64,000 nucleotides of DNA from an uncultured Eubacteriales bacterium (lineage in GTDB: Bacteria > Acidobacteriota > Aminicenantia > Aminicenantales > Aminicenantaceae). A model generated the notes under the pieces. The model did not search any database. It was not told the DNA's origin and was given only the letters and a program-made list of their open reading frames with translations. Both the position numbers and the translations under genes were made by a program. Below are positions 14,079-62,433 of the stretch, piece by piece; position 1 is the stretch's first letter; every line of letters begins with the position of its first letter. Location of the stretch: positions 35,629 to 99,628 of the forward strand of contig CAZDJZ010000007.1 in the NCBI GenBank assembly GCA_964505785.1, given 5' to 3'.

Positions 14079-14397
14079 CCTGAATTATTCACGGGCCGAG
14101 ATTGCCGCAGACGTGAGGCGCAGGGCGTGAAGCTGTGGTCCTTCACCGCGAATGCCCTGCAGCAAAGTTTTATTGCAAGGCCTGCGAAGCAGGCCGTGGC
14201 AACCTTAGACGGACAGATTCTTAACAGCAAAGCCGTCTAAGGTCCTCACGTCGCTTCGCTCCTCCGGACCCCGCCTAAAAGGGTGAAAAATTGCGAAAAA
14301 ATAAAAATTTATTAATGAAAAACTTTCCCATGGATCTTTCTCTAAAAACCCCTCAAAAATATGCAAAAATACCGCAATTTTTTTTGAATAATCCAGG
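14079..14397. repeat. A-type element, full copy carrying a nested B-type fragment
   Basis: Termini cctgaattattca (14079-14091) and tgaataatccagg (14385-14397). Internal stem at 14284-14294 and 14373-14383. It has about 100 extra bp (14167-14268), including ccgtctaaggtcctcacgtcgcttcgctcctcc. Confidence 0.75.
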
Positions 14398-14412
14398 TTC
14401 ATTAAATTCAGG

Positions 14413-17082
14413 ATGATTATTATGTCAAAATCTATTGTCTGTCTTATCTTTTTGCTTTTGACCTCACTCGCCGGGCCGGTTTATGCCCCGGCTTCTCTTC
14501 CGCAAAATCATGACCGCACCGTTAAAGCAATCTCCCTGCATTCTCCGGTGCAAATCGATGGCCTCCTGCAAGAGCCGTGCTGGCAAAACCAAGGTTACTC
14601 AGGATTCATCCAAAGCGATCCGCTCGACGGAGAGCCAGCCACGGAAAAAACAGTAGTCTGGATTGCCTTTGACAGGGAAAATTTGTTTGTCGCCGCCCGC
14701 TTATATGACCGCTCCCCTGAAAACATCGTCAGCCGGTTGGGCCGCCGGGACGACCAGGTGGATTCGGACTGGTTTATTTTTGCCGTCGACCCATATTATG
14801 ACCGGAGAAGCGGATTTCAATTTGCGGTTAATCCAGCAGGTTCTATAATGGACAGCACTTTGTTTAATGACGAAGGCGTCGACCCAACTTGGGACGGTGT
14901 TTGGGAAAGCTCCGCCCGCAGAGATGACCAGGGATGGACAGTGGAAATGCGGATCCCTTACCATCAGCTGCGCTTTAAACCAAAAGCTGACTATATCTGG
15001 GGAGTCAATTTTTTTCGCACGATACAGCGCAAGAGTGAAAAGGATATGTATGCCTGGAAACCGAAAGAGGAAAGCGGATATGTCTCGCGGTTCGCCCCTC
15101 TGACCGGAATCCGCGATATCCATCCCGGACGCTTGATTGAACTGCAGCCGTTTTCCGTGGGTAAAGCCGGATTTCTCCGTCATGATGAAGGCGACCCCTT
15201 CAACAGCGGCCGGGAATTCACAGGAAACGCCGGCTTTGACTTTAAAGCCGGTCTACAGAGTAATCTCACTTTAAATATGACAGTCAATCCTGATTTCGGT
15301 CAGGTTGAAGTGGACCCCGCGGTTATCAATATTAGCGACCAGGAAACATACTATCAGGAGAAACGCCCGTTCTTTATTGAAGGCGCGGATATTTTCCGGT
15401 TCGGATACGGCGGGGCCAACCAGGTCCGGAATCTGGGATGGAGGAATCCCAGCTTCTTTTACAGCCGCCGCATCGGCCGGGCCCCGCAAGGATTCCCTTC
15501 GACCTCCGGTTACGTGGATGCGCCGGAGTGGTCCACTATTCTAGGTGCTGCAAAAATAACCGGAAAAATCGGAAACGGTTGGAACATCGGTTTTATGGAT
15601 GCCTTGACTCAGCGGGAATTCGCGGCCATAGATGAAAGCGGACAGCGCGCACAGCAGGAGATCGAGCCTTTTACCCATTACGGTGTTTTTCGCGCTCAAA
15701 AGGATTTCAAGGAGGGGCACCAGGGTTTGGGCCTTATTGCAACCTCAGTCATTCGGGATCTAAAGAACAGCCCTTTGGAACTCACTCTCACCAGCAGTGC
15801 GCATAGCCTGGCTCTTGATGGATGGACATTTTTGGACCAGGACCGTACCTGGGTCGTAACCGGCTGGCTGGGCGGCACGCGGGTGACCGGAACATCCGAT
15901 GCGATGACCCGCCTGCAGAAATCTTTCCTCCATTATTTTCAAAGACCCGATGCCGGCCATGTTTCAGTGGATGAAAATGCCGCTTCCCTTAACGGCTGGG
16001 CCGGCCGGATTTTTATCAATAAGCAAAAGGGCCGCCTGGTCTTCAACACCGCACTGGGTGCCATCTCTCCCGGTTTTAATGCTATGGATATGGGATATCA
16101 TTCCCGGGGAGACCTGATCAACGGACATGCTGAAGCCGGATATCAATCCTTTCATCCCGGCAGCCTGTTCCGCGACTGGAAAATCACCATGTCCACACAC
16201 CGGGGATATGATTTCACGGGGCATAAAACCGACGAATACTATAATTTCAATGCTTTCGCAAGATTTTTAAATTATTGGAGCGTAAATTTCTATTTAAGCT
16301 ACGACCCGAACCGGTACAACCACAATTTAACCCGCGGGGGACCGATGAGTCTTTATCCATGGGGATTCAGCCGGAGTCTGAGCGTCAGCAGCGACAACCG
16401 GAAACACGTGGTCTTTTCCCTGTCCGCTTTCTACCGAACCCATCCCTACGGCGCCTATAATTATTCATTCCGCGGAGGAATTTTGTGGAAAGCCCGTTCA
16501 AATTTGAGCTTATCCGTCGGCCCCAGCTATACCTGGCGCCATTCCTGCGGACAATGGGTCACGCGAATTCAAGATCCTCTTAAAACAGAAACGTACGGAA
16601 CCCGCTATATTTTCTCAGATATCATCCAGGAAACTCTCCCCGTGGAAATCCGGATTAACTGGACTTTTACTCCCAAACTCAGCTTACAGGCCTATCTGCA
16701 GCCCTTTTTAGGGGCAGGAGACTTTTTCAGATTCAAAGAATTAAAGGCCCCGCGGACATTTGATTTTCTGTTTTTCGGTGAGGACAATGTGTCAACGATC
16801 GATAAAGAGGGAGGCTTGTACACGGTCGATCCTGACGGCCCGGGTCCGGCACAGGCTTTTTCCTTCCGGGATCCGGACTTTAACCTCAAATCCATGCGCG
16901 GGACCGTGGTTCTGCGCTGGGAATACAGCCCCGGGTCCACCATTTATGCGGTATGGACCCAAAACCGCTGGGACGCATCCAACCCCGGAGACTTCGACCT
17001 GGGCCGCGATTTGGCCGACCTGCTTCAGGCCGGCGGCGATCATGTCTTTTTGTTCAAGATGAACTACCGCTTCACTTTTTAG
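14413..17082 (+). CDS. outer-membrane protein, CBM9/DOMON-like N-terminal domain plus DUF5916-like beta-barrel
   Basis: Signal peptide. VWIAFDRENLFVAARLYD...WDGVWESSARRDDQGWTVEMRIPY is CBM9-like. Long beta-rich C-terminal region ending NYRFTF (OMP-type terminal Phe). The ATG at 14422 has better RBS spacing and may be the true start. Confidence 0.75.
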   Translation: MIIMSKSIVCLIFLLLTSLAGPVYAPASLPQNHDRTVKAISLHSPVQIDGLLQEPCWQNQGYSGFIQSDPLDGEPATEKTVVWIAFDRENLFVAARLYDRSPENIVSRLGRRDDQVDSDWFIFAVDPYYDRRSGFQFAVNPAGSIMDSTLFNDEGVDPTWDGVWESSARRDDQGWTVEMRIPYHQLRFKPKADYIWGVNFFRTIQRKSEKDMYAWKPKEESGYVSRFAPLTGIRDIHPGRLIELQPFSVGKAGFLRHDEGDPFNSGREFTGNAGFDFKAGLQSNLTLNMTVNPDFGQVEVDPAVINISDQETYYQEKRPFFIEGADIFRFGYGGANQVRNLGWRNPSFFYSRRIGRAPQGFPSTSGYVDAPEWSTILGAAKITGKIGNGWNIGFMDALTQREFAAIDESGQRAQQEIEPFTHYGVFRAQKDFKEGHQGLGLIATSVIRDLKNSPLELTLTSSAHSLALDGWTFLDQDRTWVVTGWLGGTRVTGTSDAMTRLQKSFLHYFQRPDAGHVSVDENAASLNGWAGRIFINKQKGRLVFNTALGAISPGFNAMDMGYHSRGDLINGHAEAGYQSFHPGSLFRDWKITMSTHRGYDFTGHKTDEYYNFNAFARFLNYWSVNFYLSYDPNRYNHNLTRGGPMSLYPWGFSRSLSVSSDNRKHVVFSLSAFYRTHPYGAYNYSFRGGILWKARSNLSLSVGPSYTWRHSCGQWVTRIQDPLKTETYGTRYIFSDIIQETLPVEIRINWTFTPKLSLQAYLQPFLGAGDFFRFKELKAPRTFDFLFFGEDNVSTIDKEGGLYTVDPDGPGPAQAFSFRDPDFNLKSMRGTVVLRWEYSPGSTIYAVWTQNRWDASNPGDFDLGRDLADLLQAGGDHVFLFKMNYRFTF

Positions 17083-24370: not shown

Positions 24371-24480
24371 CCTGGATTATCCAGCCTGGCTTATTTCATA
24401 GCCTTAACTATTCATCAAAAAATTGTGATATTTTTGCAATCTTTTTGTTATCATCGATAAACATGCTTTTAGAAAAGGAT
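24371..24480. repeat. A-type element, degenerate half copy (AT-rich arm)
   Basis: cctggattatcc...ttcatcaaaaaattgtgatatttttgcaatctttttgttatcatcgataaacatgcttttagaaaagga is colinear with 47451-47530. Confidence 0.5.
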
Positions 24481-30669: not shown

Positions 30670-33444
30670 TTGAACAGAAATCACCGCATTATCGCCAGCA
30701 CTTATGTCATTATCTTTTTTCTTTTATTAGGTACGATCTTGCCCCTTTCCGGGCAGACCATTACCGCGCCTAAGCATCATTTCGGCCATGATATTGGAGA
30801 TGATTATTGGCTGGCTACTTATTCCCAATTAATGGAGTACTGGGAAATTTTAGCCCGGGAATCGGACCGTATGATCCTGGAAGAAATCGGAACCACTGAG
30901 GAAGGCCGTCCCATGCTGATGGCGGTCATCACCTCTCCCGAAAATCACGCCCGGCTGGCCGACTACAAAACCATCGCCCGCCGCCTGGCTCTGGCTGAAG
31001 ACTTGGAAGAGGAAGAAGCTCGGAAACTGGTCCAAACCGGCAAGGCCGTAGTTTGGATAGACGGCGGCCTTCACGCAACCGAAGTGGTGGGCGCCCAGCA
31101 GGAACTGGAGCTTGTTTATCAAATGGTCAGCCGCAGCGACCGGGAAACTCTCCGCATTCTGGATAATGTAATTCTGCTGACACTTATCACTAATCCGGAT
31201 GGAATGGATCTTGTCGGCGAATGGTACATGCGGACGCCCCAGCCGGAAGAACGGTCGACCAGTAATCTCCCCCGGCTTTACCAGAAATATATCGGGCATG
31301 ACAATAACCGCGATTTTTATATGGTAACCCAAAAAGAAACCGAAGCCATCAACCGGATCTTATACCGGGAATGGTTTCCACAAATCGTATACAATCATCA
31401 TCAAACCGGCCCGGCGGGCTGTGTTTTGTTTGCTCCGCCGTTCCGTGATCCGCACAGTTATAATTATGATCCGCTGCTGGTCACCGGCATCACCACCGTC
31501 GGCAATGCCATGCACACCCGGTTTGCAGCGGAAGGAAAGCCGGGGGCCACTATGCGCGAAGGAGCCTGGTATCAAACCTGGTGGAACGGCTGCCTTCGAT
31601 GCACTCCCTATTTTCATAATATGATCGGAATTCTGACCGAAATAATCGGCAACCCCACGCCGATCGAGATTCCATTTATTCCGGAAAAACTGCTCCCGGA
31701 CAGCGATTATCCCTTTCCCATTGCCCCGCAAAAATGGCATATGCGGCAGTCTATCGATTATTCGATTACCGCTGACCGGGCTATTTTAGACCTGGCCGCC
31801 AAGCGCAAGGAAGATTTTCTCTACAATATTTTCCGCATGGCAAAAAATTCCATTGAACGGGGGAGCCGGGATCACTGGACTCTCAACCCCCGCCGGATTG
31901 AAGCGGTACAGAAGGCTATTAAAACGGATGAGGCCGAAATGGAAGGCTCAGGACGTTCCAGGGGATATCCACCCGAGTATTATGAGAAGGTCCTTCATGA
32001 CCCTGCTCATCGCGACCCCAGAGGATTTATCCTTTCCGCCGACCAGCCGGATTTTCTCACCGCGGTTAAATTCGTCAACACTCTCATTAAAAACGGAGTC
32101 AAGGTGCACCGGGCGATTGAGGATTTTGAAGCTGCCGGGAAAACTTATCCGGCCGGTTCGCTGGTGGTTAAATGCAATCAGGCTTTCCGGCCCCATATAA
32201 TGGATATGTTTGAACCTCAGTTTTATCCCGACGATATCCAATACCCGGGCGGGCCTCCCCGGCCTCCTTATGACAGCGCAGGATACACTCTGGCTTATCA
32301 GATGGGTGTGGAATTCGACAGGATTTTAGATGGCTTTGGCGGGCCCTTCGAAGAAATAGCCGGAGTCATGGCTCCGCCTGCGGGGAAAATCATCCAGCCC
32401 GATGCGGAAGGATTTTTGCTCAATCCAAGGCTGAATGACACTGTCATCGCAATTAACCGGCTGCTGAAAAACGGCACCCCGGTTTTCCGGACCGTCCGGG
32501 ACATTGAGCATAATGGAATTTCCTATCCTCCGGGAACGATATATATTCCAACAACCGGAGCCACCCTGGATATCATCCGTTCTGCGGCCGAAGAAAAAGG
32601 GCTGGTCTTCGAAGGAGTCGATTTTAATACTCCTCCGGCCATGATGAATATTCATGCCGTCCGGGTGGGATTATGGGACCAATACGGAGGATCTATGGCT
32701 TCCGGCTGGGTTCGGTGGCTTTTAGAACAGTACGAATTTGATTTTGATGTGGTTTATCCCCCGCAGCTCGATGCCGGCGGATTGAAAGAGGATTTCGACG
32801 TTTTGATTTTTGTGGACCGGGCCATTCCAGGCACGGATGAAGATGAATCCCGCTATCGCCGCTATGCGCCCATTGAGCCGGAGGGAATTCCGGAGAAGTA
32901 CCGGGGGCGGCTCGGCCGCATCACAACAGAGACCACCATTCCCCAATTGCAGCGCTTTATGGAAGCCGGAGGAACCATTCTCACCATCGGCAGTTCAACC
33001 GGTCTGGCTTATCACCTCGGCCTTCCGGTAGAAAATGCACTGGGTGAAAAAACTGAAGAAGGCGAAGTTGAACCCTATCCTATGACGAAATTTTTCATAC
33101 CCGGTTCCGTTCTTAAAATCAAAGTGGATAACACACATCCGCTCGCGTTCGGCATGCCTGAACACATCGATGTGTATTTCAACCGCAGTCCGGTCTTCCG
33201 GCTGCTGCCGGAATCACACAACCGGGTGAATGCCGTGGCCTGGTTTGACAGTCCGGATCCGCTCCGCAGCGGATGGGCCATGGGCCGGCAATTTCTGGAG
33301 GGAGGAGCCGGAGTATGCGCAGCCGAAGTCGGAAAAGGCCGCCTGGTGATGTTCGGCCCGGAAATCACGTTCCGCGCCCAGCCGCATGGAACCTTTAAAT
33401 TCCTCTTTAACGGAATATATTTAGGCGGAATCAAGAATAACTAA
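30670..33444 (+). CDS. M14-family zinc carboxypeptidase-like protein, large secreted form
   Basis: TTG start with GGAGG RBS, signal peptide, Zn-binding IDGGLHATEVVG (HxxE) and NPDG, plus about 600 aa of additional C-terminal domains. Confidence 0.8.
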   Translation: MNRNHRIIASTYVIIFFLLLGTILPLSGQTITAPKHHFGHDIGDDYWLATYSQLMEYWEILARESDRMILEEIGTTEEGRPMLMAVITSPENHARLADYKTIARRLALAEDLEEEEARKLVQTGKAVVWIDGGLHATEVVGAQQELELVYQMVSRSDRETLRILDNVILLTLITNPDGMDLVGEWYMRTPQPEERSTSNLPRLYQKYIGHDNNRDFYMVTQKETEAINRILYREWFPQIVYNHHQTGPAGCVLFAPPFRDPHSYNYDPLLVTGITTVGNAMHTRFAAEGKPGATMREGAWYQTWWNGCLRCTPYFHNMIGILTEIIGNPTPIEIPFIPEKLLPDSDYPFPIAPQKWHMRQSIDYSITADRAILDLAAKRKEDFLYNIFRMAKNSIERGSRDHWTLNPRRIEAVQKAIKTDEAEMEGSGRSRGYPPEYYEKVLHDPAHRDPRGFILSADQPDFLTAVKFVNTLIKNGVKVHRAIEDFEAAGKTYPAGSLVVKCNQAFRPHIMDMFEPQFYPDDIQYPGGPPRPPYDSAGYTLAYQMGVEFDRILDGFGGPFEEIAGVMAPPAGKIIQPDAEGFLLNPRLNDTVIAINRLLKNGTPVFRTVRDIEHNGISYPPGTIYIPTTGATLDIIRSAAEEKGLVFEGVDFNTPPAMMNIHAVRVGLWDQYGGSMASGWVRWLLEQYEFDFDVVYPPQLDAGGLKEDFDVLIFVDRAIPGTDEDESRYRRYAPIEPEGIPEKYRGRLGRITTETTIPQLQRFMEAGGTILTIGSSTGLAYHLGLPVENALGEKTEEGEVEPYPMTKFFIPGSVLKIKVDNTHPLAFGMPEHIDVYFNRSPVFRLLPESHNRVNAVAWFDSPDPLRSGWAMGRQFLEGGAGVCAAEVGKGRLVMFGPEITFRAQPHGTFKFLFNGIYLGGIKNN

Positions 33445-33697
33445 CCTGAATTATTCACGGGTCGAGATTGCCGCAGATGCGAGGCGCAGGGTATGAAGCT
33501 GTGGCACTTCACCGCGAATGCCCTGCAACAAAGCAGATGCGGTGAGATTCGGCCCGCCCAAAAGGGTGAAAAATTGCGATTATAATATAAATATGAAAAT
33601 GAAAAACTTTCAATTTGAACTTTCAATAAAAACCATATTAATTGTTGATAAAAAAGGAATTACAAAAATATCGCAATTTTTTTATGAATAATTCAGG
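33445..33697. repeat. A-type element, best-preserved full copy
   Basis: Termini cctgaattattca (33445-33457) and tgaataattcagg (33685-33697). Internal stem aaaaattgcgat (33569-33580) pairs with atcgcaattttt (33670-33681). It fills nearly the whole spacer between the TAA at 33442-33444 and the ATG at 33705. Confidence 0.8.
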
Positions 33698-33704
33698 CTA
33701 AGCA

Positions 33705-35252
33705 ATGAAAAAACCAGGGGAAATAAACAGGCGGGAATTCGTCCGTAATGCCGCTGTTATGCTCGCAGCCGCTGAAGTCGGCCTCAGCGGAGCCGGCAGG
33801 CTGTGGGGGGAAAAAAGTAAACCGCCGCAGAACAAATCAGCGGGGACTGACCTCCCGCTGATCGGTATTCAAATGGGCCCGCATACCATGCTGGAGGAAG
33901 GGATCGAGCATGTCCTCGATCTGATTAAAAATACGGCCGCTGTCAATACGGTTTTAGTATACAGCCACACCTATCATTCTTATTTGGACAAACCGCTTTC
34001 CTGGCTGGTTCCGGATCACGGCACTCCTCTCAAAAAGCTAAAAGGACGGCGTTTCCCTTCGGTTTGGGTAAAGCATCACGATAAATATTTCAAGGACACA
34101 ATATTGCGGCATCAGGCAGTGGACCAAAGTCATGAATACGCCGGCCGTGATCTCCTGCACGAAATAACGGTGCCTGCCCGCGACCGGGACATGAAAGTCT
34201 ATGCCCGTATCCTGGAAGGCGCCGGCCCCCTGCCGGCGGAAAGAATCGAAAATTACTTAAAAACGGTCACCATTGATGTATATGGCCGCCCGACCCGGGT
34301 GTCTTGCTGGAATAACCCCGATTATATCAGCTTTTGGACCGCCACAATGGAAGATCTTTTTCGTAACTATGACCTGGATGGTATCCAATGGGGTGCCGAA
34401 CGGATGGGCCCGCTTATGAACGTTATTATGCCCTGGAATGATACGCCTCCCGCATGTTTTTGTGAGCACTGCCGCGCCCGCGGAAGAGAAAAAGGTATTG
34501 ATGTGGAAAAAGCCAGGGAAGGATTTGCAAAGCTCTATGAATATGTCCGCAGACTAATGGGGGGCAAACCCAAACCTCCAGAAGGCGTCTTCACTGTTTT
34601 CCTGCGCCACCTCCTGCAGTATCCGGAGATTCTGGCCTGGGAATACCAATACCGTCTCTCACGGGAAGAAATCATGCAAGCCATGTACGGAACGATAAAG
34701 GCCATCAAACCGGATGCTGAAGTAGGCTGGCATGTGGACCACCAGCCTTCAAGCTGGGACATTGTGTACCGCGCCGAACTCAGCTATGCGGACATGGCTC
34801 CCTATTCCGATTTTATCAAATTTATTGCTTATCATGACGTTCTTGGGCCACGCATAAGATGGTGGTATCTGGAGCGATTAAAAAACACCGTCCTCAGCGA
34901 GTTATCCCTGAAACAGTCACTGGACCTCTATTACGATTTATTCGGGTATGACAAAAAAAATGAGCCCGGTGTGGACGAACTTGAAGAAAAAGGATTTTCT
35001 CCGGATTATGTTTTCCGCGAAACTAAACGGAGTGTGGCTTCCGCCGCCGGAAAAACAAAAATTTACCCCGGTATCGGTTTTGATGTGCCCTGGGCTGCAG
35101 AACATATTCCAGCTGACCCCGATGAAGTGTATTCAGCTGTGATTAAAGCCTTTGAGGCCGGAGCGGACGGGATTGTCATATCCAGAGAATATGAGGAAAT
35201 GCGGATTCCGAACCTCAAGGCCGTGGGCCGGGCCGTACGGGATAAATTTTAG
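33705..35252 (+). CDS. Tat-signal exported hypothetical protein (possibly TIM-barrel glycoside-hydrolase-like)
   Basis: Twin-arginine leader INRREFVRNAAVMLAAA. Contains a CFCEHC cysteine motif. The fold call is a guess. Confidence 0.55.
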   Translation: MKKPGEINRREFVRNAAVMLAAAEVGLSGAGRLWGEKSKPPQNKSAGTDLPLIGIQMGPHTMLEEGIEHVLDLIKNTAAVNTVLVYSHTYHSYLDKPLSWLVPDHGTPLKKLKGRRFPSVWVKHHDKYFKDTILRHQAVDQSHEYAGRDLLHEITVPARDRDMKVYARILEGAGPLPAERIENYLKTVTIDVYGRPTRVSCWNNPDYISFWTATMEDLFRNYDLDGIQWGAERMGPLMNVIMPWNDTPPACFCEHCRARGREKGIDVEKAREGFAKLYEYVRRLMGGKPKPPEGVFTVFLRHLLQYPEILAWEYQYRLSREEIMQAMYGTIKAIKPDAEVGWHVDHQPSSWDIVYRAELSYADMAPYSDFIKFIAYHDVLGPRIRWWYLERLKNTVLSELSLKQSLDLYYDLFGYDKKNEPGVDELEEKGFSPDYVFRETKRSVASAAGKTKIYPGIGFDVPWAAEHIPADPDEVYSAVIKAFEAGADGIVISREYEEMRIPNLKAVGRAVRDKF

Positions 35253-35456
35253 TATTTCAATTCCAGATCCAATGCTTTATTTGCGTTGAGACTGACGTTG
35301 CGCGTTTCGCCGGGGTTACAAACTCCACCTGCTGACCTATCGCTGAAGTCACTGCTGCCTGAATAACTCTGTTTTCCCAATGCAGATATTCAATTTCAAT
35401 CTGCCTCCGGCAAAGAACGCCCTCGATCGTTCCGGAAGGACAGAGAGTTTTGCCTT

Positions 35457-36488
35457 CTAATAATATTCAGCCAGGCCCTCCGGAATATATTCGAACCGTT
35501 TGAGTTCATCCGGAATAACAGCCGGAAAATTTGATTCAATTGGCTTTTCCTGCAATACCGGAATTTTTTCAATATACACTGGCTCATGACCTTTTAAATG
35601 CATTTTCCGAAAGGGATAGCGGTAAGATAAGTGCGGCCGAACTGATGTTCCAAAGTAGCTGACAAATTTTGGATATTCCAAAATCGCTGCCCCCGTCATT
35701 TTTGAGGGATGAATATACAACCGGCCCAAATTTGTATCTAAGTCTCCAAATTTTTGCATTTTTTCCCAGTTTCCCGGCCTTACTTTTAAAAAATGACTTC
35801 GGATTAAACCGCTTTCGGTTAGGGTTTCACGTGGAGTCATTATAAGCGGCGCCACTCTTTTCCGGTTTCCAACTGTCTGGAAACGGTTTTTATATACAAA
35901 AGAGCAATAATTTATCGGCAAGTCAATCTCATGTGCCACTGCTTCTCGAATGACGGCCAGAGCCGTCAGTTCCGATTCCATAACCGTGACTTTGGGGCCA
36001 TGGAGATAAGTATAATGGAGACGCTGTTCATCCTCAGGAACAGCAGGGATCTCCACAGTCACTCTGTCGATTATTTCAGCTGCCGTTTTGACACCGAGAA
36101 GACGATAATCATCGGCTGCAATATTAAACCTTATTTCATTCAGGCCGGCTTCCTTCAGCAGAATCAGCTTCTCCCTGGATACTAGACGGCCGTTGGTATA
36201 AAGCCAAAAATAGACCTTGTCACGAAAATGGCTCTTAATTTCCTGCAAAAACACCAGGCTTCTCTCTAGAGAGGCCAAGGGTTCGCCGCCGCTTAGGCTG
36301 ACTCCCTGAATATTGAATTTTTCAATATAGTCTGTATGAATTGAATCGCCGCATTGACGGATTAATTCCTCTCGTTTTTCCGCTGCTGCAGCACCCTGTT
36401 CCGGTTCAACCCATTTTAACTGGGGATAGTACTTTCCGTATTCCTGCTCGTTCTTGGTTATATAATAATTTTTTTCATTCATGTCCAT
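35457..36488 (-). CDS. radical-SAM-like protein lacking the CX3CX2C cluster motif
   Basis: Core radical-SAM blocks VSLSGGEPL, WLYTNG and LKEAGLNEIRFNI are present. Only one Cys occurs in the first 70 aa. The upstream sequence has stops in frame (taa taa). Confidence 0.6.
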   Translation of the reverse strand: MDMNEKNYYITKNEQEYGKYYPQLKWVEPEQGAAAAEKREELIRQCGDSIHTDYIEKFNIQGVSLSGGEPLASLERSLVFLQEIKSHFRDKVYFWLYTNGRLVSREKLILLKEAGLNEIRFNIAADDYRLLGVKTAAEIIDRVTVEIPAVPEDEQRLHYTYLHGPKVTVMESELTALAVIREAVAHEIDLPINYCSFVYKNRFQTVGNRKRVAPLIMTPRETLTESGLIRSHFLKVRPGNWEKMQKFGDLDTNLGRLYIHPSKMTGAAILEYPKFVSYFGTSVRPHLSYRYPFRKMHLKGHEPVYIEKIPVLQEKPIESNFPAVIPDELKRFEYIPEGLAEYY

Positions 36489-36602
36489 TTTTTTCGATTA
36501 TTAATCAGAAAGAGTAAAGAGGGAAGAGGGAAAAAACCGAATTGCCATTTGCGAACTCAAGTGATAGAATTTCCCCAATTCAGGACAAAAAGGAGCAGGG
36601 GC

Positions 36603-37529
36603 ATGCTCGAGATTTCTCACTTATCTAAATCTTTCGGAGATATTCATGCCGTCAATGACATCTCACTCGAAGTGGGAGAAGGTCAAATTTTCGGCCTCCT
36701 CGGACCTAATGGAGCAGGCAAAACCACCATCATTTCTATGATTGCGGGCCTGCTGACTCCAGATTCGGGTAAAATCCTGATCAATTCCATGGACATTCGC
36801 CGGTCCCCACGGCAGATCCGCAGGATAATGGGCGTGGTTCCTCAGGATATGGCTTTTTATGAAGAGTTGACAGCCCGGGAAAACCTTCATTTCTGGGGCC
36901 GTCTCCAGGGTATATCCGGACCGGAACTGGATAGTCGTCTTCAGTATTACTTGGACAAAGCCGGTTTGACCGGCCGGGAAGATGATGCTTTGAAGAAATA
37001 TTCCGGCGGAATGAAAAGGCGGATCAACCTCATCCTTGGGCTGATTCATAAGCCCCGTCTTCTTTTACTGGATGAACCCACCATCGGTATAGACGTGCAG
37101 ACAAAAATGAATATTTTAAATCTCATCCGGGAAGCGGCGCAGGAAGGGACCACTGTTATATATACCACGCATAACTTAAACGAAGCCGAAGATCTGTGCG
37201 ACCGGATCGCCATAATCGATAAGGGGAAAATACTGGCAGAGGGGACTTTGCCGGATCTAATCAAAATCGTTGGAGAAAAAGATATTGCCGTCATCCAGGG
37301 CCGATTTTCTCTGGAAGCAGGCCAGAAAATCATCTCCGAAGAGAAAGGCATCGATGTTATCACCCTCAAACAGGATTACCTGGCGGTCTCATTGGAGGCT
37401 TCACAAAAAATTCCAGGATTGATGGAGCGTTTTTTTAATTCAGGCTTGAAAGTTGATGATATTTCACTTAAACAGCCTAATCTTGAAAGCGTTTTTCTCA
37501 AATTGACCGGAAAGGAACTGCGGGAATGA
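36603..37529 (+). CDS. ABC transporter ATP-binding protein (ABC-2 exporter type)
   Basis: Walker A GPNGAGKTT, signature YSGGMKRR and Walker B LLLLDEPT. Start at the ATG at 36603 with an aaaggag RBS rather than the 36549 ORF start. Confidence 0.9.
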   Translation: MLEISHLSKSFGDIHAVNDISLEVGEGQIFGLLGPNGAGKTTIISMIAGLLTPDSGKILINSMDIRRSPRQIRRIMGVVPQDMAFYEELTARENLHFWGRLQGISGPELDSRLQYYLDKAGLTGREDDALKKYSGGMKRRINLILGLIHKPRLLLLDEPTIGIDVQTKMNILNLIREAAQEGTTVIYTTHNLNEAEDLCDRIAIIDKGKILAEGTLPDLIKIVGEKDIAVIQGRFSLEAGQKIISEEKGIDVITLKQDYLAVSLEASQKIPGLMERFFNSGLKVDDISLKQPNLESVFLKLTGKELRE

Positions 37530-38785
37530 GACGCATCTGGCTTCTAACCTTGAAGGATTTTAAGCGCAAATGGAAGAATCCGGTGGTTATCGTTGGATTC
37601 CTGATGATTCCGCTGCTTTTCACTTTTCTATTTGGATTTATCTTCGGCTCCTCCGGAGAGGAGACTCTGCCCTCCATCAAGGTCCTGGCTGTGGATAATG
37701 ACGACAGCCTATTGTCCCGGCTTTATCTGGGTGCATTTACGCAGGGTGAATTAAAAGAGATGCTCAATCTCGAGACAGCGGCTTCTGAAGAAAAAGCCAG
37801 GCATAGCCTCGATCAAGGAAAGGCATCCGCTTTGATCATCATTCCGGATGGATTCGGCGATGCTGTTTGGAAAGGAGAAGAAACAGAAATCACATTGATT
37901 AAAAATCCATCTGAGGAATTCCTGCCCCAAGTGGCGGAGGAAATCAGCAGCACAACCGCTTTGATTTTTTCCGGCCTATTGCAGGTTTTTTCCGATGAAT
38001 TGGATCAAATCCGGCAATTCACCGAGATGAACGAGAATATTCCCGACCGGGTCATTTCCTCCATTTCTATACAAATGAAAGAACGCATGGAAGGGATTGA
38101 AAAATATATTTTCCCTCCCGTTATCTCTATAAAGCAAACAGCGAGAGGTGACACTGACGAAAACCAATCTTCCGGATTTTCCATTCACAGTTATATCCTT
38201 CCGGCTATATCCATTATGTTTGTTTTATTCATCTGCAATATCGTATTCGAGGATTTGCTGCGGGAGAAAGAAAAGGGGACTCTCCTGAGGATGTCCATTT
38301 CCCCCATGCAGATCAGTGAATTTGTATGGAGTAAAATACTAACCTCCTTGGGAATCGGCATCATCTGTACTCTCCTTTTAGTGGGATTAGGGAGCTTGAT
38401 CTTTTCCATTTATTGGGGCAACCTGGGTTTTCTCATTTCAATCATATTAAGCCTGAATATTCTTATTGCCGGATTCATTGCTTTTCTATACATCTTTATC
38501 CGGACAGAACGTCAGGCCGGCGCTCTAATGTCCTCCGTCATAGTGGTCATGGCGCTTTTAGGGGGCAGTATGACGCCGGTGCAAAATTTTCCTCCTTTCG
38601 TTCAAAAAATATCCCAGTTCACGATCAATTACTGGGGCCTGGAAGCTTTTCATAGAAATATCCTGGGCGAATCGCCGGGAGAAATCTGGACAATCATCAT
38701 AGGTATGCTAACCATCGGAATCGTTCTCGCTGTATTAAGCTCAACCATATTGAAGACAAGATTGAAGAAGGGGTTATATCGATGA
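37526..38785 (+). CDS. ABC-2 type transporter permease
   Basis: N-terminal TM helix, large extracytoplasmic loop, then five or six C-terminal TM helices. ATGA overlap with the ATPase gene. Confidence 0.8.
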   Translation: MRRIWLLTLKDFKRKWKNPVVIVGFLMIPLLFTFLFGFIFGSSGEETLPSIKVLAVDNDDSLLSRLYLGAFTQGELKEMLNLETAASEEKARHSLDQGKASALIIIPDGFGDAVWKGEETEITLIKNPSEEFLPQVAEEISSTTALIFSGLLQVFSDELDQIRQFTEMNENIPDRVISSISIQMKERMEGIEKYIFPPVISIKQTARGDTDENQSSGFSIHSYILPAISIMFVLFICNIVFEDLLREKEKGTLLRMSISPMQISEFVWSKILTSLGIGIICTLLLVGLGSLIFSIYWGNLGFLISIILSLNILIAGFIAFLYIFIRTERQAGALMSSVIVVMALLGGSMTPVQNFPPFVQKISQFTINYWGLEAFHRNILGESPGEIWTIIIGMLTIGIVLAVLSSTILKTRLKKGLYR

Positions 38786-39906
38786 CATTCTGGACGATTG
38801 TCTGGACGGATTTAAAAATCGCATTCAAAGACAAGATGTTTTTCTTCTGGCTTCTTTTATTTCCTCTGCTGTTCGCCTTCCTTTTCGGTATGGCCTTCCG
38901 CACCGGCTCTCCCGCTGACGTAAAGGCGGAAATCAATATTCTGAATAAGGATCAAGGCATTCTTTCAGAAGCCCTTCTTGCTGAGCTGGAAGAGGACAAA
39001 TACACCGTAAATCTATTAGAAAACAAGCAAGAAGTCGAAACTCGTATCCTGATCATACCGGAAAAATTCACGGAAAAAATCATGCAGGGCGAAAGAGTGG
39101 AATTGATATTAGAAAAAATCCCCGAAAGCAGCATGGAAGCAGGTCAGGCAGCCTATGCTCATATTCTGCGGGCGGTCATAAAAATTCTTGCGCGTTTAGT
39201 CAGTTTATCGCCCGAAAGTATGAACATTTTGGAAGACCGGTTTTCGGAAACGGAGCTGAGGGAAATCATATCACTTAAAGTCGAACAAGCTGGACGGCTC
39301 AGAATCATTCCCGCGGGATTTAATCATTCCGTTCCTGCCATCACCATTATGTTTCTCCTGTTCACCGTATTGATGTATGGCGGGATTAACCTTCTCGAAG
39401 AGCGCCGGCATGGACAGCTGGAAAGGATTATTCTGACTCCGGCCACGTACACCTCCCTCATCGGGGGAAAATGGCTGACCCGCGTTATAATCGGCATGCT
39501 GCAGATTATCCTGATGTTCGCTGCCGGCAAGCTGTTGTTCGGCATATATTTAGGCGAATCTATCCCGGCTTTGATTTTCATTTCCTTCTTTTTCGCAGCA
39601 ACCATTGCGGGCCTCAGCATACTTTACGGCAGCTTGATCCGCAAAGAAGAAGTCCTGGTTCTTCTGAATATCCTGACAGCCAACCTCATGGCCGCTTTAG
39701 GCGGATGCTGGTGGCCTTTGGAACTCGTCCCAAGAGGCCTTCGTATCACCGCTTTTATCTTTCCCACGGGATGGACCATGGATGCCATGCATAAGCTGAT
39801 TTTTTTCGGATACGGCTTTCGGGAAGTGCTCCCTCATATCGGCGCTTTGGCGTTATTCAGCCTGGTTTTTCTTTTTTTGGCGGTAAAATTCTTCAAAATC
39901 CGCTAG
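38782..39906 (+). CDS. ABC-2 type transporter permease (paralog)
   Basis: Same architecture as the upstream permease, with an ATGA overlap. Confidence 0.8.
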   Translation: MTFWTIVWTDLKIAFKDKMFFFWLLLFPLLFAFLFGMAFRTGSPADVKAEINILNKDQGILSEALLAELEEDKYTVNLLENKQEVETRILIIPEKFTEKIMQGERVELILEKIPESSMEAGQAAYAHILRAVIKILARLVSLSPESMNILEDRFSETELREIISLKVEQAGRLRIIPAGFNHSVPAITIMFLLFTVLMYGGINLLEERRHGQLERIILTPATYTSLIGGKWLTRVIIGMLQIILMFAAGKLLFGIYLGESIPALIFISFFFAATIAGLSILYGSLIRKEEVLVLLNILTANLMAALGGCWWPLELVPRGLRITAFIFPTGWTMDAMHKLIFFGYGFREVLPHIGALALFSLVFLFLAVKFFKIR

Positions 39907-39935
39907 CCTGGCTATTCATAAAACGACCTGTCAAG

Positions 39936-40199
39936 GTCGTCCTGAGCGAAGCGACGGATCTCATGCTGCCTCGTTTTGAAAGAGCAAAGAGTGAAGAGTA
40001 AGAAGTTATCTTATTAAATCAAAAATCAAATATCAAAAATCAAAAATAAACCAAAGCCGAATAGGAAATCGGGGAATTTATTTAAATTGAATGCACCGAA
40101 CAGACTGAATAGACCGAATAGACTAAAAGAACGCGATGAACGCGCGCGCAGCTAACGCAGCCGTCTAAGATTCCCGTCGCTCTGCTCCGGGAATGACAT
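39936..40199. repeat. B-type interspersed mosaic element, full copy
   Basis: Left end gtcgtcctgagcgaagcgacggatctcatgctgcctcg; right end ccgtctaagattcccgtcgctctgctccgggaatgacat (inverted). Block-by-block colinear with 53753-54022. Preceded by an isolated A-type terminus cctggctattcat (39907-39919) directly after the TAG stop. Confidence 0.75.
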
Positions 40200-40299
40200 G
40201 GGGAGACGAGCGAAGCGAGCATGACCTGGACAGACGCAGATGGACTAGATGCAAACAGCACTTTAAAAGCCGTCAAATTTCCTATAAAATGAACGGCAT

Positions 40300-44292: not shown

Positions 44293-44398
44293 CCTGAATT
44301 ATTCACAGGCCGGGATTGCCGCCAAATGTGAGGCGCAGGGCAGGATGCATTCGTTCTTCAGGACAAATGCCCGGCAAAAAAGCAGATGCGGCGAGAGA
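44293..44398. repeat. A-type element, GC-rich half copy
   Basis: cctgaattattcacaggccgggattgccgc...agcagatgcggcgagagata is colinear with 33445-33550. The second terminus is missing. Confidence 0.6.
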
Positions 44399-47450: not shown

Positions 47451-47596
47451 CCTGAATTATTCATAAAAAAATTGCGATATTTGCAATTTCTTTTTTATCA
47501 GCGATTAACATGTTTTTTAGAGAAGGACCCATGGGACAGTTTTTCATTAATAACTTTTTATTTTTTCGCAACTTTCCACCCCTCCGGGCGGGGGGC
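47451..47596. repeat. A-type element, AT-rich half copy
   Basis: cctgaattattcataaaaaaattgcgat...ttcgcaactttccacccctccgggcgggggg. Starts directly after the TAA stop at 47448-47450. Confidence 0.6.
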
Positions 47597-52263: not shown

Positions 52264-52352
52264 TGGTGCGGAAGGTGGGACTCGAACCCACACGGCCTTT
52301 TGGGCCATAAACTCCTGAGGCTTACGCGTCTACCAGATTCCGCCACTTCCGC
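52264..52352 (-). tRNA. tRNA-Leu (anticodon CAG), CCA encoded
   Basis: The reverse complement reads GCGGAAGTGGCGGAATCTGGTAGACGCGTAAGCCTCAGGAGTTTATGGCCCAAAAGGCCGTGTGGGTTCGAGTCCCACCTTCCGCACCA. It has a 7-bp acceptor stem, an anticodon loop CTCAGGA, a long variable arm and a GTTCGAGTC T-loop. It is very similar to the E. coli tRNA-Leu(CAG) layout. Confidence 0.9.
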
Positions 52353-52585
52353 ACAAAAGCTTCGCGATTTGACATTATAGCGATATATGCAGATGCTGTA
52401 AAGTGAAAAGATACTTGACAAATATTACATCCGGCGTATCTTTAAAATGCGTGAGCAATTCCCCAAAATTATTCCCAGTAATGAACATCTGTCTTTTTTC
52501 CGGACAATACAATTCTCTGCTTTTATTTTTCCACTCGGCGGGCAACCTAAGTCTAATAAGGTCCCAGCCTTTTTTAGGAGGACAT

Positions 52586-53737
52586 ATGAAATTATTAAAC
52601 CAGGGACAACTCGAATCTCTCTCAAGATTCCGCAGCCGGAAACTTCCCATGATTTCCTTATTTCTCGATACCAGCCGCAACCGTCTTTCCAAGAAAGAGA
52701 TTCAAATTTCCCTCAAAAATTTGCTTCAGCATGGAAGGTCGAGGCTGAATCAAATGGATTTTTCCAAATCAGAAAAGGAATTCTTATCAAAGGAACTTGA
52801 TAAAATCGGCGCATACTGTTCACGCCGTCTTCCCGGTTATAAGTATGTTGGGATGGCGGTTTTCAGCTCTACAAAAGATGATTTCTGGCAAGATTTCGAA
52901 TTGGTAAAATCCCCGCGGAATATGATTATTTTTGACCAATCTCCATATGTGCGTCCCCTTTCTGCTGTTCTGGATGAATACCACCGGATTTGTGTTGTTA
53001 CATCCGATAAAAAATCCGCAGCTTGGTATGGCGTGTACATGGGAGAAATCACCCGGCTTGAAACTCTTTCCGGGAAAGATGAGCCCCAGCCGCGGGAATC
53101 AGGCCGGGAAGAATATAGTTCCAAGCGGATTGAACGCCATATAAATTCGATTCAGCACAGTCATTTTAAAAAAGCGGCGAAAACCACCTTTGATTTATGG
53201 AAACAGCATAAATTCGAGTGGCTTTTCATGGGAATTCCTGATAAATATGTCCCTGAATTTGAATCCCTTCTGCATCCATATATTAAAAAGAGCATTAAGG
53301 CCCGCATTAAAATAAAGCCCCAAGACTCTATGTCAAAAATCCTATCCAAAACTTTAGAGTTGAAACAAAAATTAAAAGAAGATGAGAGGAATGAAATTGT
53401 TAAGCGTTTTATAAAGGAATCCCATAAAGACGGTCTGGCGGTTGCCGGATTGGAACCAACCCTGAATAAACTGAACCGGGGTGAAATACAAACAATGCTT
53501 GTTACCCGATTTTTTTCTCAGCCGGGGATGCAATGCCCGGAATGCGGTTTTCTTTATCTTACCCGGAAAACCTGTTCCGTCTGCCATAAACCGACAGAAA
53601 AAGTTATGGACATCGTTGACCATGCGGTGGAAAACGCTTTGAACTCAAGCTGCCGGGTCAAGCACATCAGTCCGCCCTCTGATCTGGATGCTTACGGGAA
53701 AATCGGCGGTTTTCTCCGCTATAAAACGACGACCTGA
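52586..53737 (+). CDS. bacterial archaeo-eukaryotic release-factor-like protein (aeRF1/Pelota/Vms1-like, baeRF family) with C-terminal zinc ribbon insert
   Basis: Start at the ATG at 52586 after a taggagg RBS. ISLFLDT, SPYVRPL and VVTSDKKSAAWYGVY blocks. DGLAVAGLEPTLNKLNRGEIQTMLV resembles eRF1 domain 3. CPECG...CSVCH is a Zn ribbon. The C-terminal end is GKIGGFLRY. Confidence 0.55.
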   Translation: MKLLNQGQLESLSRFRSRKLPMISLFLDTSRNRLSKKEIQISLKNLLQHGRSRLNQMDFSKSEKEFLSKELDKIGAYCSRRLPGYKYVGMAVFSSTKDDFWQDFELVKSPRNMIIFDQSPYVRPLSAVLDEYHRICVVTSDKKSAAWYGVYMGEITRLETLSGKDEPQPRESGREEYSSKRIERHINSIQHSHFKKAAKTTFDLWKQHKFEWLFMGIPDKYVPEFESLLHPYIKKSIKARIKIKPQDSMSKILSKTLELKQKLKEDERNEIVKRFIKESHKDGLAVAGLEPTLNKLNRGEIQTMLVTRFFSQPGMQCPECGFLYLTRKTCSVCHKPTEKVMDIVDHAVENALNSSCRVKHISPPSDLDAYGKIGGFLRYKTTT

Positions 53738-53752
53738 ACTATTGACACACTG

Positions 53753-54022
53753 TGTCATCCTGAGGGCTGCGAAGCAGACCGCAAGGATCTTGTGCTGCCT
53801 CGCCTTAAAGAAGTGAAGAGTAAATCAAAGATCAAAAAAAATCCAAAGCCGAATAGGAGATCGGGGTCTTTATTTAAATTGAATGGACCGAACAGACTGA
53901 ATAGACAAAGACAAACCTGGAAAGACCCAGATGGACTAATATAAGCTAAAAGAACGCGAAGAACGCGAGCGAAGCGAGCAAGACCGCCTAAGATTCCCGT
54001 CGCTGCGCTCCGGGAATGACAT
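53753..54022. repeat. B-type interspersed mosaic element, full copy
   Basis: gtgtcatcctgagggctgcgaagcagaccgcaaggatcttgtgctgcctcg...ccaaagccgaataggagatcgggg...tttatttaaattgaatggaccgaacagactgaatagac...aaaagaacgcgaagaacgcgagcgaagcgagc...cgcctaagattcccgtcgctgcgctccgggaatgacat. Confidence 0.75.
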
Positions 54023-54072
54023 GGGGTCAACCGCAAGCGCGCAGCCAGCCGGGTGAACAGATCGAATTGCGG

Positions 54073-60681: not shown

Positions 60682-60799
60682 TGTCGTCTCGAGGAGCGGA
60701 GCGACGAGGGATCTCATAGTGCCCCGTATGGACAAAATGGAGATACTGTCCTGCAGAAACGATGCAGCCTGAGATCCTGCGCTTCGCTCAGGATGACAT
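60682..60799. repeat. B-type element, short copy
   Basis: tgtcgtctcgaggagcggagcgacgagggatctcatagtgccccg on the left and gagatcctgcgcttcgctcaggatgacat on the right, in inverted orientation. Confidence 0.6.
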
Positions 60800-60910
60800 T
60801 AGATGCGGTAAGATCCACCCCGCCCAAAGGGTTAAAAATGGCGATTAAAATATGAATAAAAAAGGAAAAAGATTAATAAATCGGCATCGCCATTTTTTAT
60901 TATGAACAAT
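60800..60910. repeat. A-type element, partial copy with shortened loop
   Basis: agatgcggtaagatccaccccgcccaaagggtt core. Stem aaaaatggcgat (60834-60845) pairs with atcgccattttt (60886-60897). Terminus-like tatgaacaatc abuts the xerD stop codon. Confidence 0.55.
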
Positions 60911-61813
60911 CTATGCCCGGGGGTGGAACTTGTCATAGACCTGCCGCATACGGCGACGGGAAACATGGGTATAAATCTGAGTGGTGGTAATCTGACTGTG
61001 ACCCAGCATCATCTGGACAGAGCGTAAATCGGCACCCCGCTCTAAAAGATGGGTGGCAAAAGAATGGCGCAAAACATGCGGGCTTATACCTGGATCCAAT
61101 CCTGCCCGGTTCGCATACTTTTTCAGCATCTTCCAAAATCCCTGGCGTGTGAAATAACTTCCCCTGGATGTCAAAAAAAGAAAATCCGTCTCTTGCTTCA
61201 ACAGCACGGGCCTCGCTGATTCCAAATACGATCTGACTGCCTTGGATGCGGATTTACCCAAGGGAACCACCCTTTCTTTACTGCCTTTTCCCCGGCAGAT
61301 GAGAAATCCATCCTGAAAATTGATGTCCTTGGTCCTCAGTTTGATCAATTCGGACACCCGCAGGCCGGTGGCATACATCAATTCCAGCATGGCAACATCA
61401 CGGCATCCCCGGGTTTCCCGGCTATCCGGCTGGTTGAGCAGCTTTTCCACTTCTTCAAACTTCAAAAATTTCGGCAGATTGAGCCATAATTTGGGAGCGC
61501 CAAGGTTCTCCGCCGGATTTTTTTTCAGAGTTCCGTCCAGAATCAGAAAACGGTAAAAGGCCCGAATGGCGGAAACAGCGCGGGCAACAGAACGGGCGGA
61601 CAGGCCGGCTTTGCGCTGGTCATGGATAAATTTGACCAGATGAGACTCCTCCACTTTTTCCCAGGTAATCTTTTCCTTGCGCAGGAAATAAAACAGCTTC
61701 ATAAGGTCCAGAGAATAGGACTGCAGTGAATTGGAAGATAAACCCTTTTCAACGGATAAATAATCCAGAAATATCCTCAAGATTTCTTCATCCGGAGAAG
61801 AAAGCGCGTTCAT
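60911..61813 (-). CDS. xerD: tyrosine site-specific recombinase XerD
   Basis: N-terminal FLDYLSVEKGLSSNSLQSYSLDL. Catalytic region HVLRHSFATHLLERGADLRSVQMMLGHSQITTTQIYTHV; 300 aa. Confidence 0.8.
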   Translation of the reverse strand: MNALSSPDEEILRIFLDYLSVEKGLSSNSLQSYSLDLMKLFYFLRKEKITWEKVEESHLVKFIHDQRKAGLSARSVARAVSAIRAFYRFLILDGTLKKNPAENLGAPKLWLNLPKFLKFEEVEKLLNQPDSRETRGCRDVAMLELMYATGLRVSELIKLRTKDINFQDGFLICRGKGSKERVVPLGKSASKAVRSYLESARPVLLKQETDFLFLTSRGSYFTRQGFWKMLKKYANRAGLDPGISPHVLRHSFATHLLERGADLRSVQMMLGHSQITTTQIYTHVSRRRMRQVYDKFHPRA

Positions 61814-62433
61814 TGAATAAATGGATTGCTGTTTTTTTCCTGACCCACGGTTGTAGGCGGCCCATGCCCCGGAAAAACCCTCAAGTCCTCATCCAGGGTA
61901 AAAATTTTTGTTTTTATGGAGGCCATCAATTGGTCCCAACTCCCTCCGGGCAAATCGGTGCGCCCCACTCCCTGATTGAACAGAGTGTCCCCGGACAAGA
62001 TGAACCAATCTCCAACCAGGGTGATTCCGCCCGGCGAATGCCCGGGGGTGTGTATGACTTTTAATCCGGAAACCGCACCGATATCCACCATATCCCCATC
62101 TTCCAAAAATTTATCCGGTAAAGGAGACTTCTTGGCCCCCAGCATCAAGGCAAACGCGGATTGCAGGGCATTTGACAAAAGCTTCCCGTCCCCGGAATGG
62201 ATCAGCAAAGGAACGGAATACATTTCTATGATATCTTTATTAGCCCCGATATGATCAACATGTCCGTGGGTATTAATCAGCATCACCGGTTTAAGATCAA
62301 ATTGATCAATAGAGGCAATAATCTTTTTCGGTTCAGCTCCGGGGTCCACTACCGCCGCCTCCCTCGTCTTTTCATCATAGACAAGATAACAATTCGCCTC
62401 TAAAGCGCCGACGACAACCGTTTCTACTTTCAT
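61810..62433 (-). CDS. MBL-fold metallo-hydrolase (glyoxalase II-like)
   Basis: NTHGHVDHIG (HxHxDH), HTPGHSPG and GHGPPTT. 4-nt overlap with xerD. Confidence 0.85.
   Translation of the reverse strand: MKVETVVVGALEANCYLVYDEKTREAAVVDPGAEPKKIIASIDQFDLKPVMLINTHGHVDHIGANKDIIEMYSVPLLIHSGDGKLLSNALQSAFALMLGAKKSPLPDKFLEDGDMVDIGAVSGLKVIHTPGHSPGGITLVGDWFILSGDTLFNQGVGRTDLPGGSWDQLMASIKTKIFTLDEDLRVFPGHGPPTTVGQEKNSNPFIQ

Follow-up and report, generated by a model that had tools for sequence, protein, structure and literature searches.

Non-autonomous cut-and-paste transposons (MITEs) are well known from cultured bacteria; the Aminicenantes are known from metagenomes only. In enterobacteria, the hairpins formed by transcripts of the ERIC/IRU and REP/BIME repeats can affect the fate of the neighbouring mRNA in an orientation-dependent way (overview in PMC3184786). 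Promoters of sigma-70-like type are carried by the Correia elements of Neisseria (CREE/NEMIS) and by other MITEs, most of which sit directly 5' of genes, and Correia transcripts are folded (PMC10969869). The repeat family described here, identified in a 64-kb stretch of DNA (the window), is a genuine, previously undescribed MITE family of an Aminicenantes-like lineage; a full-text literature search returned no paper combining Aminicenantes with MITEs. Judged by its likenesses, the Correia element is the closest functional analogue: both are small and non-coding, with terminal inverted repeats and many intergenic copies, both are frequently placed immediately upstream of genes, and both occur as subtypes and internal deletion forms. 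Their sequences are unrelated, however, and Correia elements duplicate TA, whereas 4 bp are duplicated at YTAR here; they are also nearly symmetric, while the present element is strongly asymmetric, with a GC hairpin interrupting one of its repeats. Promoter activity has been demonstrated for the Correia elements and is only predicted here. With ERIC/IRU and REP/BIME the family shares the character of an intergenic repeat with a stable hairpin transcript, the hairpin here being predicted from sequence, though there is no sequence similarity to either, and REP differs further in having no terminal inverted repeats or duplications and in being tied to RAYT enzymes.

A BLASTN search with positions 33445-33697 as the query and an nhmmer search with a profile built from three of the full copies identified nine copies in the window: four full, four partial and one 24-nt stub. 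The original prediction of an element family with four full and at least four partial copies, in both orientations, has thus been borne out, with copies recovered on the plus and the minus strand; the stub had not been listed, and the coordinates, mostly right, were slightly off for two of the fragments. The full copies lie at 33445-33697 on the plus strand (GC-arm subtype a), at 633-882 on the minus strand (subtype c), at 2133-2387 on the minus strand (subtype b) and, in interrupted form, at 14079-14397 on the plus strand. This last copy was matched as 14079-14167 plus 14270-14397, an unrelated GC-rich repeat of 102 nt (14168-14269) being inserted at the 3' side of its GC arm. The neighbours of the copy at 33445-33697 are an M14 peptidase gene, with its stop codon at 33444, and a 515-aa gene, with its ATG at 33705; the copy is 91-92% identical to copies of the MAG JAWODN01. 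Among the partial copies, a right-end fragment of about 70 nt is found at 24402-24469 on the minus strand (previously given as 24371-24480), with an additional terminus-like 13-mer nearby at 24371-24383; a left terminus with only a degenerate GC arm lies at 44293-44396 on the plus strand (62.7 bits with the covariance model), immediately 5' of the ribosome-binding site that precedes a gene for a TonB-dependent receptor; the right half of an element is seen at 47451-47592 on the minus strand; and an internal fragment without termini, covering profile positions 62-194, was detected by nhmmer at 60776-60913 on the plus strand (previously 60800-60910). The stub, also found by nhmmer, is a left terminus at 2688-2711 on the minus strand, fused to another repeat type.

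The terminus CCTGRATTATTCA, with at most one mismatch, occurs 10 times in the window, as against 0.33 occurrences expected from shuffles. All of the window copies are intergenic and both strands are occupied; the full copies have at least two stop codons in each reading frame, in agreement with the earlier statement that no reading frame is conserved. The pairwise identity of the three uninterrupted full copies is only 61-71%, because they fall into three subtypes, and a search of the window with the GC-arm covariance model brought up no additional diverged copies. In a Pfam scan of 48 window ORFs the genes recognised were ordinary chromosomal ones, such as tsaD, lepA, those of an RND efflux operon, ABC transporter and peptidase genes and, as the only recombinase, a XerC/D-like gene; no DDE or HUH transposase was among them, in line with what had been noted from the start.

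The orientation of the element is defined here as running from the left terminus through the hairpin and the AT-rich body to the right terminus. The order of parts originally described -- terminus, GC-rich arm, AAAAATTGCG, an AT-rich stretch of about 100 nt, CGCAATTTTT and inverted terminus -- was confirmed, though the accompanying picture of a stem with an AT-rich loop overlooks a split 28-nt repeat and the functional asymmetry of the element. The 13-nt terminal inverted repeat CCTGRATTATTCA is present at both ends of all full copies. Read as its reverse complement, the right end runs CCTGAATTATTCA-T-AAAAAAATTGCGAT, whereas at the left end CCTGAATTATTCA is followed by a GC-rich module of about 111 nt and only then by T-AAAAAAATTGCGAT. 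With the GC module taken out, the two ends agree over 28 nt; the terminal repeat is therefore really about 28 nt long (extended pattern CCTGRATTATTCA(T)AAAAAAATTGCG) and is split at the left. By its sequence, then, the element is a composite: an AT-rich body within a 28-nt inverted repeat, the left repeat being split after base 13. In the copy at 33445-33697 the terminal inverted repeats CCTGAATTATTCA occupy 33445-33457 and 33685-33697, the GC-rich, strand-specific hairpin module (99 nt, 62% GC), which forms the core of the ~111-nt GC module, occupies 33458-33556, and the inner half of the extended repeat (AAAAATTGCGATTA) lies at 33569-33582 and pairs with 33670-33684 (ATCGCAATTTTTTTA), all on the plus strand.

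The AT-rich body between the inner repeat halves varies from copy to copy. The best-conserved block is the last ~70 nt at the right, CATGYTWATCGCTGATAAAAAAG-GATTGCAAAAACATCGCAATTTTTTTATGAATAATTCAGG, which is kept by short forms of 112-119 nt and by fragments; these short forms, which are without most of the hairpin, already have YTAR flanks. Overall the elements range from 112 to 466 nt in length. In many of the MAG copies another GC-rich repeat replaces the hairpin apex (GACGACGACAAT...ATTGTCGTCCTGAGGAGCGAAGCGAC...), giving lengths of 330-466 nt, and the repeat nested in the copy at 14079 differs from those in the MAG copies. A second family of GC-rich hairpin repeats (...GTCGTCCTGAGGAGCGAAGCGACGTAAGGATC...) is found in the window at 2632-2663, 2963-2994 and 14238-14269, and elsewhere in loci L001, L002, L030, L038, L041 and others; since this family replaces the apex of the GC arm in many MAG copies, the arm looks like a hotspot for nested insertion or recombination. 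Copies are also found head-to-tail or closely stacked, with one right end a few bases from the next left end (L057, about 60-150; L022, 1892-1913; L037, 7182-7290).

Beyond the window, an exact-pattern scan with 24 nt of the left end against one genome per species gave 54 loci, all in two MAGs, 'Candidatus Aminicenantes bacterium BLK5-2.bin.174' (JAWODN01) and one labelled 'uncultured Eubacteriales' (CAYRTV01). Over all loci nhmmer found at least 76 copies or fragments, 9 in the window and at least 67 elsewhere, of which 31 have both ends. In keeping with the original prediction, there are dozens of further copies in related genomes, and their similarity holds on alignment. The family explains the broken assemblies of these genomes, many contigs of the more fragmented MAG terminating in the element, and is a marker of strain-level variation. 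When metagenomes were scanned for a 20-mer of the right end, 14 loci matched, seven of them copies of the element and the remaining seven chance matches inside genes such as dnaA. No match was found in plasmids or phages by distant BLASTN, nor in viral contigs by pattern scan. Against Rfam, nothing in the window reached the gathering score except one tRNA, and a permissive E-value over the element gave chance-level matches only (E > 8).

A strongly preferred target is seen on both flanks of the element. The left flanking 4-mer is YTAR in 43 of 69 cases (CTAA 18, TTAG 10, CTAG 8, TTAA 7) and the right one in 25 of 40, where this class of 4-mers (4/256) would be expected in about 2%. The two flanking 4-mers are identical in 12 of the 33 complete copies and 2 more have an identical 5-mer, compared with a mean of 3.3 and a maximum of 9 when the flanks were randomly re-paired (2000 trials). 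The copy at 33445-33697, for example, is bordered by CTAA at 33441-33444 and 33698-33701 on the plus strand, the TAA of the left one being the stop codon of the upstream M14 peptidase gene. Element ends abut stop codons three times in the window, because the target contains TAA or TAG: here at 33444, at 632, where the right end of the 633-882 copy adjoins the stop codon (630-632) of the gene at 12-632, and at 47450, where the right end of the 47451-47592 copy adjoins that of the TonB-dependent receptor gene. The other 19 complete copies have no exact duplication; many have two different YTAR flanks, for which later mutation or recombination between copies is needed. The boundaries of the element are sharp at the termini, with unrelated flanks, and identities of up to 96-99% between copies in JAWODN01 point to recent activity.

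One orthologous locus, L048 of CAYRTV01, is collinear with window positions 31052-33421 and 36531-39919 at 87% identity; the window, itself in neither MAG, therefore stems from a third genome related to them. L048 is without the element beside the stop codon of the M14 gene, and its own left-half copy occupies a place taken up in the window (36467-36535) by unrelated AT-rich sequence; the difference looks like one of presence and absence, the regions not being cleanly collinear and offering no clean empty site. About 3 kb of the window, including the 515-aa gene and most of a radical-SAM-like gene, are absent from L048 (2397-2755 as compared with window 33445-36466). The window version of this stretch begins with the 33445 copy, and the left-half copy in L048 lies at the site matching its far end (window ~36467); a repeat-mediated deletion or insertion may account for the difference. 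L048 and the window were the sole orthologous pair in an all-against-all BLAST of the loci, and in exact-protein look-ups for empty sites the proteins at 33705, 1128 and 14413 were not on record, while LepA was found only on one 5-kb Logan contig, the protein occurring in run SRR7048220.

Terminal inverted repeats together with target duplication point to a DDE transposase acting in trans, and it is very probable that the members of this family are MITEs, moved by a DDE transposase encoded elsewhere, with YTAR as the target and a 4-bp duplication. Such a transposase would recognise the CCTGRATTATTCA termini, insert the element at YTAR and duplicate those 4 bp, the body of the element being modular and often rearranged. 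The original MITE reading agrees with the inverted repeats, the YTAR target, the 4-bp duplications in excess of the control, the dozens of copies in related genomes, the contig ends and the absence seen in L048.

The covarying, strand-specific hairpin is the sole feature of the family that goes beyond a routine MITE. Its core comes in three subtypes of 97, 98 and 99 nt, which differ in their middle helices (CAGGGCAT/ATGCCCTG, TTTGCGGC/GCTGCAAA and ACTCC/GGAGT) and have the long hairpin shape in common. The forward strand folds with -52 to -66 kcal/mol, the reverse complement with -35 to -45 and shuffled sequences with -33 +/- 3.5; for 33458-33556 the values are -55.1 kcal/mol and, for the complement, -36.8. 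The covariance model R1 scores this module at 114.8 bits on the plus strand and 14 bits on the minus strand, and intact copies in general at 93-115 bits forward and 14-20 bits on the other strand. In an alignment of 17 distinct arms, standard pairs were found in 95.4% of cells, as against 40-47% when the partners were slid by 1-3 columns; changes on both sides were seen at 8 of 28 pairs, compared with 4.4 +/- 1.1 in shuffles (1 of 500 as high), and the covariation score was 0.202 compared with 0.114 (0 of 500 as high). We counted 69 G.U cells, at 12 pair positions, and 4 A.C cells, at 3 positions, though the strand asymmetry goes back to a small number of ancestral substitutions that many copies have in common by descent. 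Single-stranded DNA tolerates G.T pairs too, and templated repair within palindromes can mimic compensatory change. From all this we infer, with not quite even confidence, that the hairpin is under selection on one strand, most simply as RNA made from left to right. Our best guess is that such an RNA may stabilise transcripts, be a site of processing or form a barrier; roles at the DNA level are possible.

Two other readings have been rejected. An intrinsic terminator would have a U-run, but the hairpin is followed by an A-run, with no U-run after it on either strand, and in the small AUUGC/GCAAU stem that precedes the T7 run no more than two pairs are G-C; a protein-coding function was dismissed given the stops in all frames and the subtype lengths of 97, 98 and 99 nt. 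The two arms of 33458-33556 share motifs in direct orientation and swapped order, GAGATT ... GCAGATGCG in the 5' arm and GCAGATGCG ... GAGATT in the 3' arm; they may be places where proteins bind the DNA duplex.

The two ends of the element differ markedly in their relation to genes. When ORFs of at least 100 aa starting within 60 nt were counted, on the same strand for right ends and divergent for left ends, 16 of 34 right ends but only 5 of 63 left ends had a gene start at this distance (Fisher p = 1.7e-5), and the median distance to a gene start, by a crude gene call, was 38 nt for the right end (co-directional) and 273 nt for the left (divergent; Mann-Whitney p = 6e-5). In the window, the right ends of the copies at 2133-2387, 33445-33697, 14079-14397 and 24402-24469 lie 3, 7, 15 and 39 nt, respectively, from the starts of tsaD (ATG at 2129), the 515-aa gene, a DUF5916 gene (14413) and a larA-like gene (ATG at 24362). 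Towards neighbouring genes the element shows just a mild bias in orientation (21:11 downstream, 39:25 upstream), and the genes around the copies may be arranged in tandem, convergently or divergently. Placed only a few bases 5' of a start codon, an insertion would displace the gene's own promoter region, and insertions right beside a start codon would survive with the right end facing the gene, the hairpin end being tolerated only further away. Since near-start insertions are retained almost only with the right end facing the gene, this end probably supplies a promoter and a short leader, or at least lets read-through and translation pass. More specifically, we infer, at close to an even chance, that the gene next to the element has its transcription and translation supplied, or at least allowed, by the right ~70 nt. 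Many genes probably have the element as their promoter or leader where one of its ends is 3-60 nt away from the start codon; in that case it would be a natural, testable case of mobile regulatory DNA in this lineage.

A candidate promoter reading out of the right end has been located at 33660-33688 on the plus strand, as a weak sigma-70-like match, TTACAA-17 nt-TATGAA. The corresponding family consensus, TTGCAA-17-TATGAA, lies in a block conserved in 41 right ends; it matches at 8 of 12 positions, without the final T of the -10 box, and the sigma-70 consensus may not be that of this phylum. Transcripts from this candidate would start in the last bases of the terminus. When three copies were scanned for promoters and terminators, the right end gave no sigma-70 promoter call, and nowhere in the element was an intrinsic terminator called. 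Working outward promoters borne by IS elements can match the consensus poorly, as with the 3/6 and 2/6 of ISAba1 (PMC9330008). A promoter-like site on the minus strand of the 33445 copy (33613-33584) was dropped, as it is not conserved in other copies. The right terminus also contains an ATG (in the stretch 33684-33701): together with a YTAR duplication it invariably gives ATG-AAT-AAT-TCA-GGY-TAR, a mini-ORF of five codons whose stop lies in the duplication. In the two copies of the window that lack a YTAR flank, at 2129-2150 on the minus strand and 14384-14416 on the plus strand, the mini-ORF continues and its TGA overlaps the ATG (as ATGA) of the tsaD and DUF5916 genes; this could be chance or translational coupling.

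Mobility by a DDE transposase has to be weighed against two other accounts of how the copies came to be spread. The first, in which they represent a conserved intergenic regulatory or RNA motif, itself immobile and spread by recombination or gene conversion, would fit the hairpin conserved with covariation, the position often just 5' of genes and the many mosaic or truncated copies. It is extremely improbable, however, in view of the target duplications and the defined insertion tetranucleotide, the termini forming sharp boundaries beside unrelated flanks, the use of both orientations and of every type of intergenic region, the unrelated downstream genes (tsaD, larA-like, DUF5916, TonB receptor) and the near-identical copies in one genome. 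Single-strand mobilisation by an HUH/Y1 enzyme, of the IS200/IS605-type PATE or REP/RAYT type, with the GC hairpin as the recognised DNA structure, we consider very improbable as well. The clear 13-nt (extended 28-nt) terminal inverted repeats argue against it, as do the presence of the same tetranucleotide on both flanks, with direct duplication in 14 of 33 copies, the restriction of the hairpin to one end and the lack of a Y1 gene among the window ORFs in the Pfam scan, even though the large subterminal hairpin is strand-specific, DNA hairpins tolerate G.T pairs, the apex is a nesting hotspot for other GC-rich hairpin repeats and the left flank shows a preferred tetranucleotide. The IS200/IS605-type PATEs and the REP/RAYT repeats have subterminal hairpins at both ends and a fixed tetra- or pentanucleotide on one side of the insertion. 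Because this class, to our knowledge, leaves neither terminal inverted repeats nor duplications, the Y1/HUH half of an earlier suggestion, that an IS or a Y1/HUH TnpA would be found as the partner of the element, is now unlikely; and no partner of any kind came to light in the loci or the metagenome scan. In some 360 kb of fetched loci no pair of termini lay 0.7-3 kb apart and no pair of orphan termini enclosed an ORF, and the metagenome scan with the right-end 20-mer gave no locus with two inverted matches.

The role of the hairpin and of the right end, given mobility in trans, is a separate matter. Both might serve transposition only, as DNA-level sites for the transposase or for host factors, the closeness to gene starts then reflecting target choice (YTAR within TAAGGAGG-like ribosome-binding regions) with no effect on expression. 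Several right flanks do read CTAAG.., TAAGGAG.. or CTAGGAAGG, beside Shine-Dalgarno-like sequence; the scan calls no consensus promoter or terminator; the direct-orientation motifs GAGATT and GCAGATGCG shared by the hairpin arms could be protein-binding sites; and the right 30 nt might be conserved for the binding of transposase and nothing else. Target choice alone, however, predicts that both ends lie equally near gene starts, against the 16/34 and 5/63 observed, and a binding site on duplex DNA would not predict the strand asymmetry of the hairpin, so that we hold this account to be rather unlikely. An effect of the right end on the adjacent gene can also be carried further, to a reading of the 99-nt hairpin as an undescribed structured RNA module on a transposon which, with the right-end block, makes up a portable directional expression cassette. 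This is speculative and, in our estimate, decidedly unlikely; if true, the element would combine a barrier or stabiliser at one end with a promoter and leader at the opposite end, and the upstream regions of dozens of unrelated genes would have been rewired in an uncultured Aminicenantes lineage. As to the origin of the composite, which is compatible with mobility by a DDE transposase, the GC module may once have been a separate hairpin repeat that inserted into the left repeat of an older AT-rich MITE, the composite then spreading. The match of the two ends over 28 nt after removal of the 111-nt module, the sharp contrast in GC content and the abundance in the same genomes of other GC-rich hairpin repeats nesting in this element all agree with such an insertion, but no copy with an uninterrupted left repeat and no module without the terminus were found, and the module is flanked by no duplication; the account is tentative, with somewhat less than an even chance of being right.

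The target and duplication of the element match those of IS5 and are compatible with IS701, which makes these candidate families only. IS5 duplicates YTAR (PMC5009759), as the present element does. The ends of IS5-family members are not known to begin with CC, as those of the present element do, but with GG or GA, and no parent IS came to light in the loci or the metagenome scan. Ends beginning with CC, along with duplications of 4-5 bp, are a feature of the IS1380 family, which makes it a possible lead; a YTAR target preference is not a known feature of that family. IS701-family members produce 4-bp nTAG direct repeats, and those of Deinococcus have a terminal repeat that starts with CTG and ends with ATTCA (CTGTACTTTGGGGATATTCA; PMC10017437). 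The length of the duplication is the same here, TTAG and CTAG are frequent among the flanks of the element and its termini show a slight similarity to the Deinococcus example, in CTG...ATTCA only; CTAA and TTAA, however, are as common as TTAG and CTAG. Members of the IS1380 family such as ISEcp1 and ISPme1 carry strong outward promoters near one end that activate adjacent genes (PMC9330008).

Several further features of the window deserve mention. The stub at 2688-2711 lies in a 324-nt tandem duplication, 98% identical (2365-2618 and 2689-2942), that sits in a repeat-filled region of roughly 970 nt upstream of tsaD. Both of its units carry the left end of the element, the second just the first 24 nt, fused to another repeat, and both contain arrays of the heptamer ACTTTTC (2588-2618 and 2912-2949). 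A gene at 60911-61813 on the minus strand encodes a tyrosine recombinase of 300 aa with the domains Phage_integrase and SAM-like N, XerC/D being the most likely identity. The gene begins with a start codon (61813) that overlaps the stop of a gene for a metallo-beta-lactamase-fold protein at 61810-62433, and its own stop (60911) lies right beside the terminus-less fragment at 60776-60913. A tRNA-Leu(CAG) gene at 52264-52352 on the minus strand adjoins the gene for a baeRF_family10 protein, with a release-factor-like domain, at 52403-53737 on the plus strand. A third intergenic repeat family is represented by three copies, 70-92% alike, at 991-1124, 40032-40250 and 53824-54026, built of 9-nt units like GACCGAATAGAC followed by a unit of about 85 nt with CCGTCTAAGATTCCCGTCGCTTCGCTCCGGGAATGACA.
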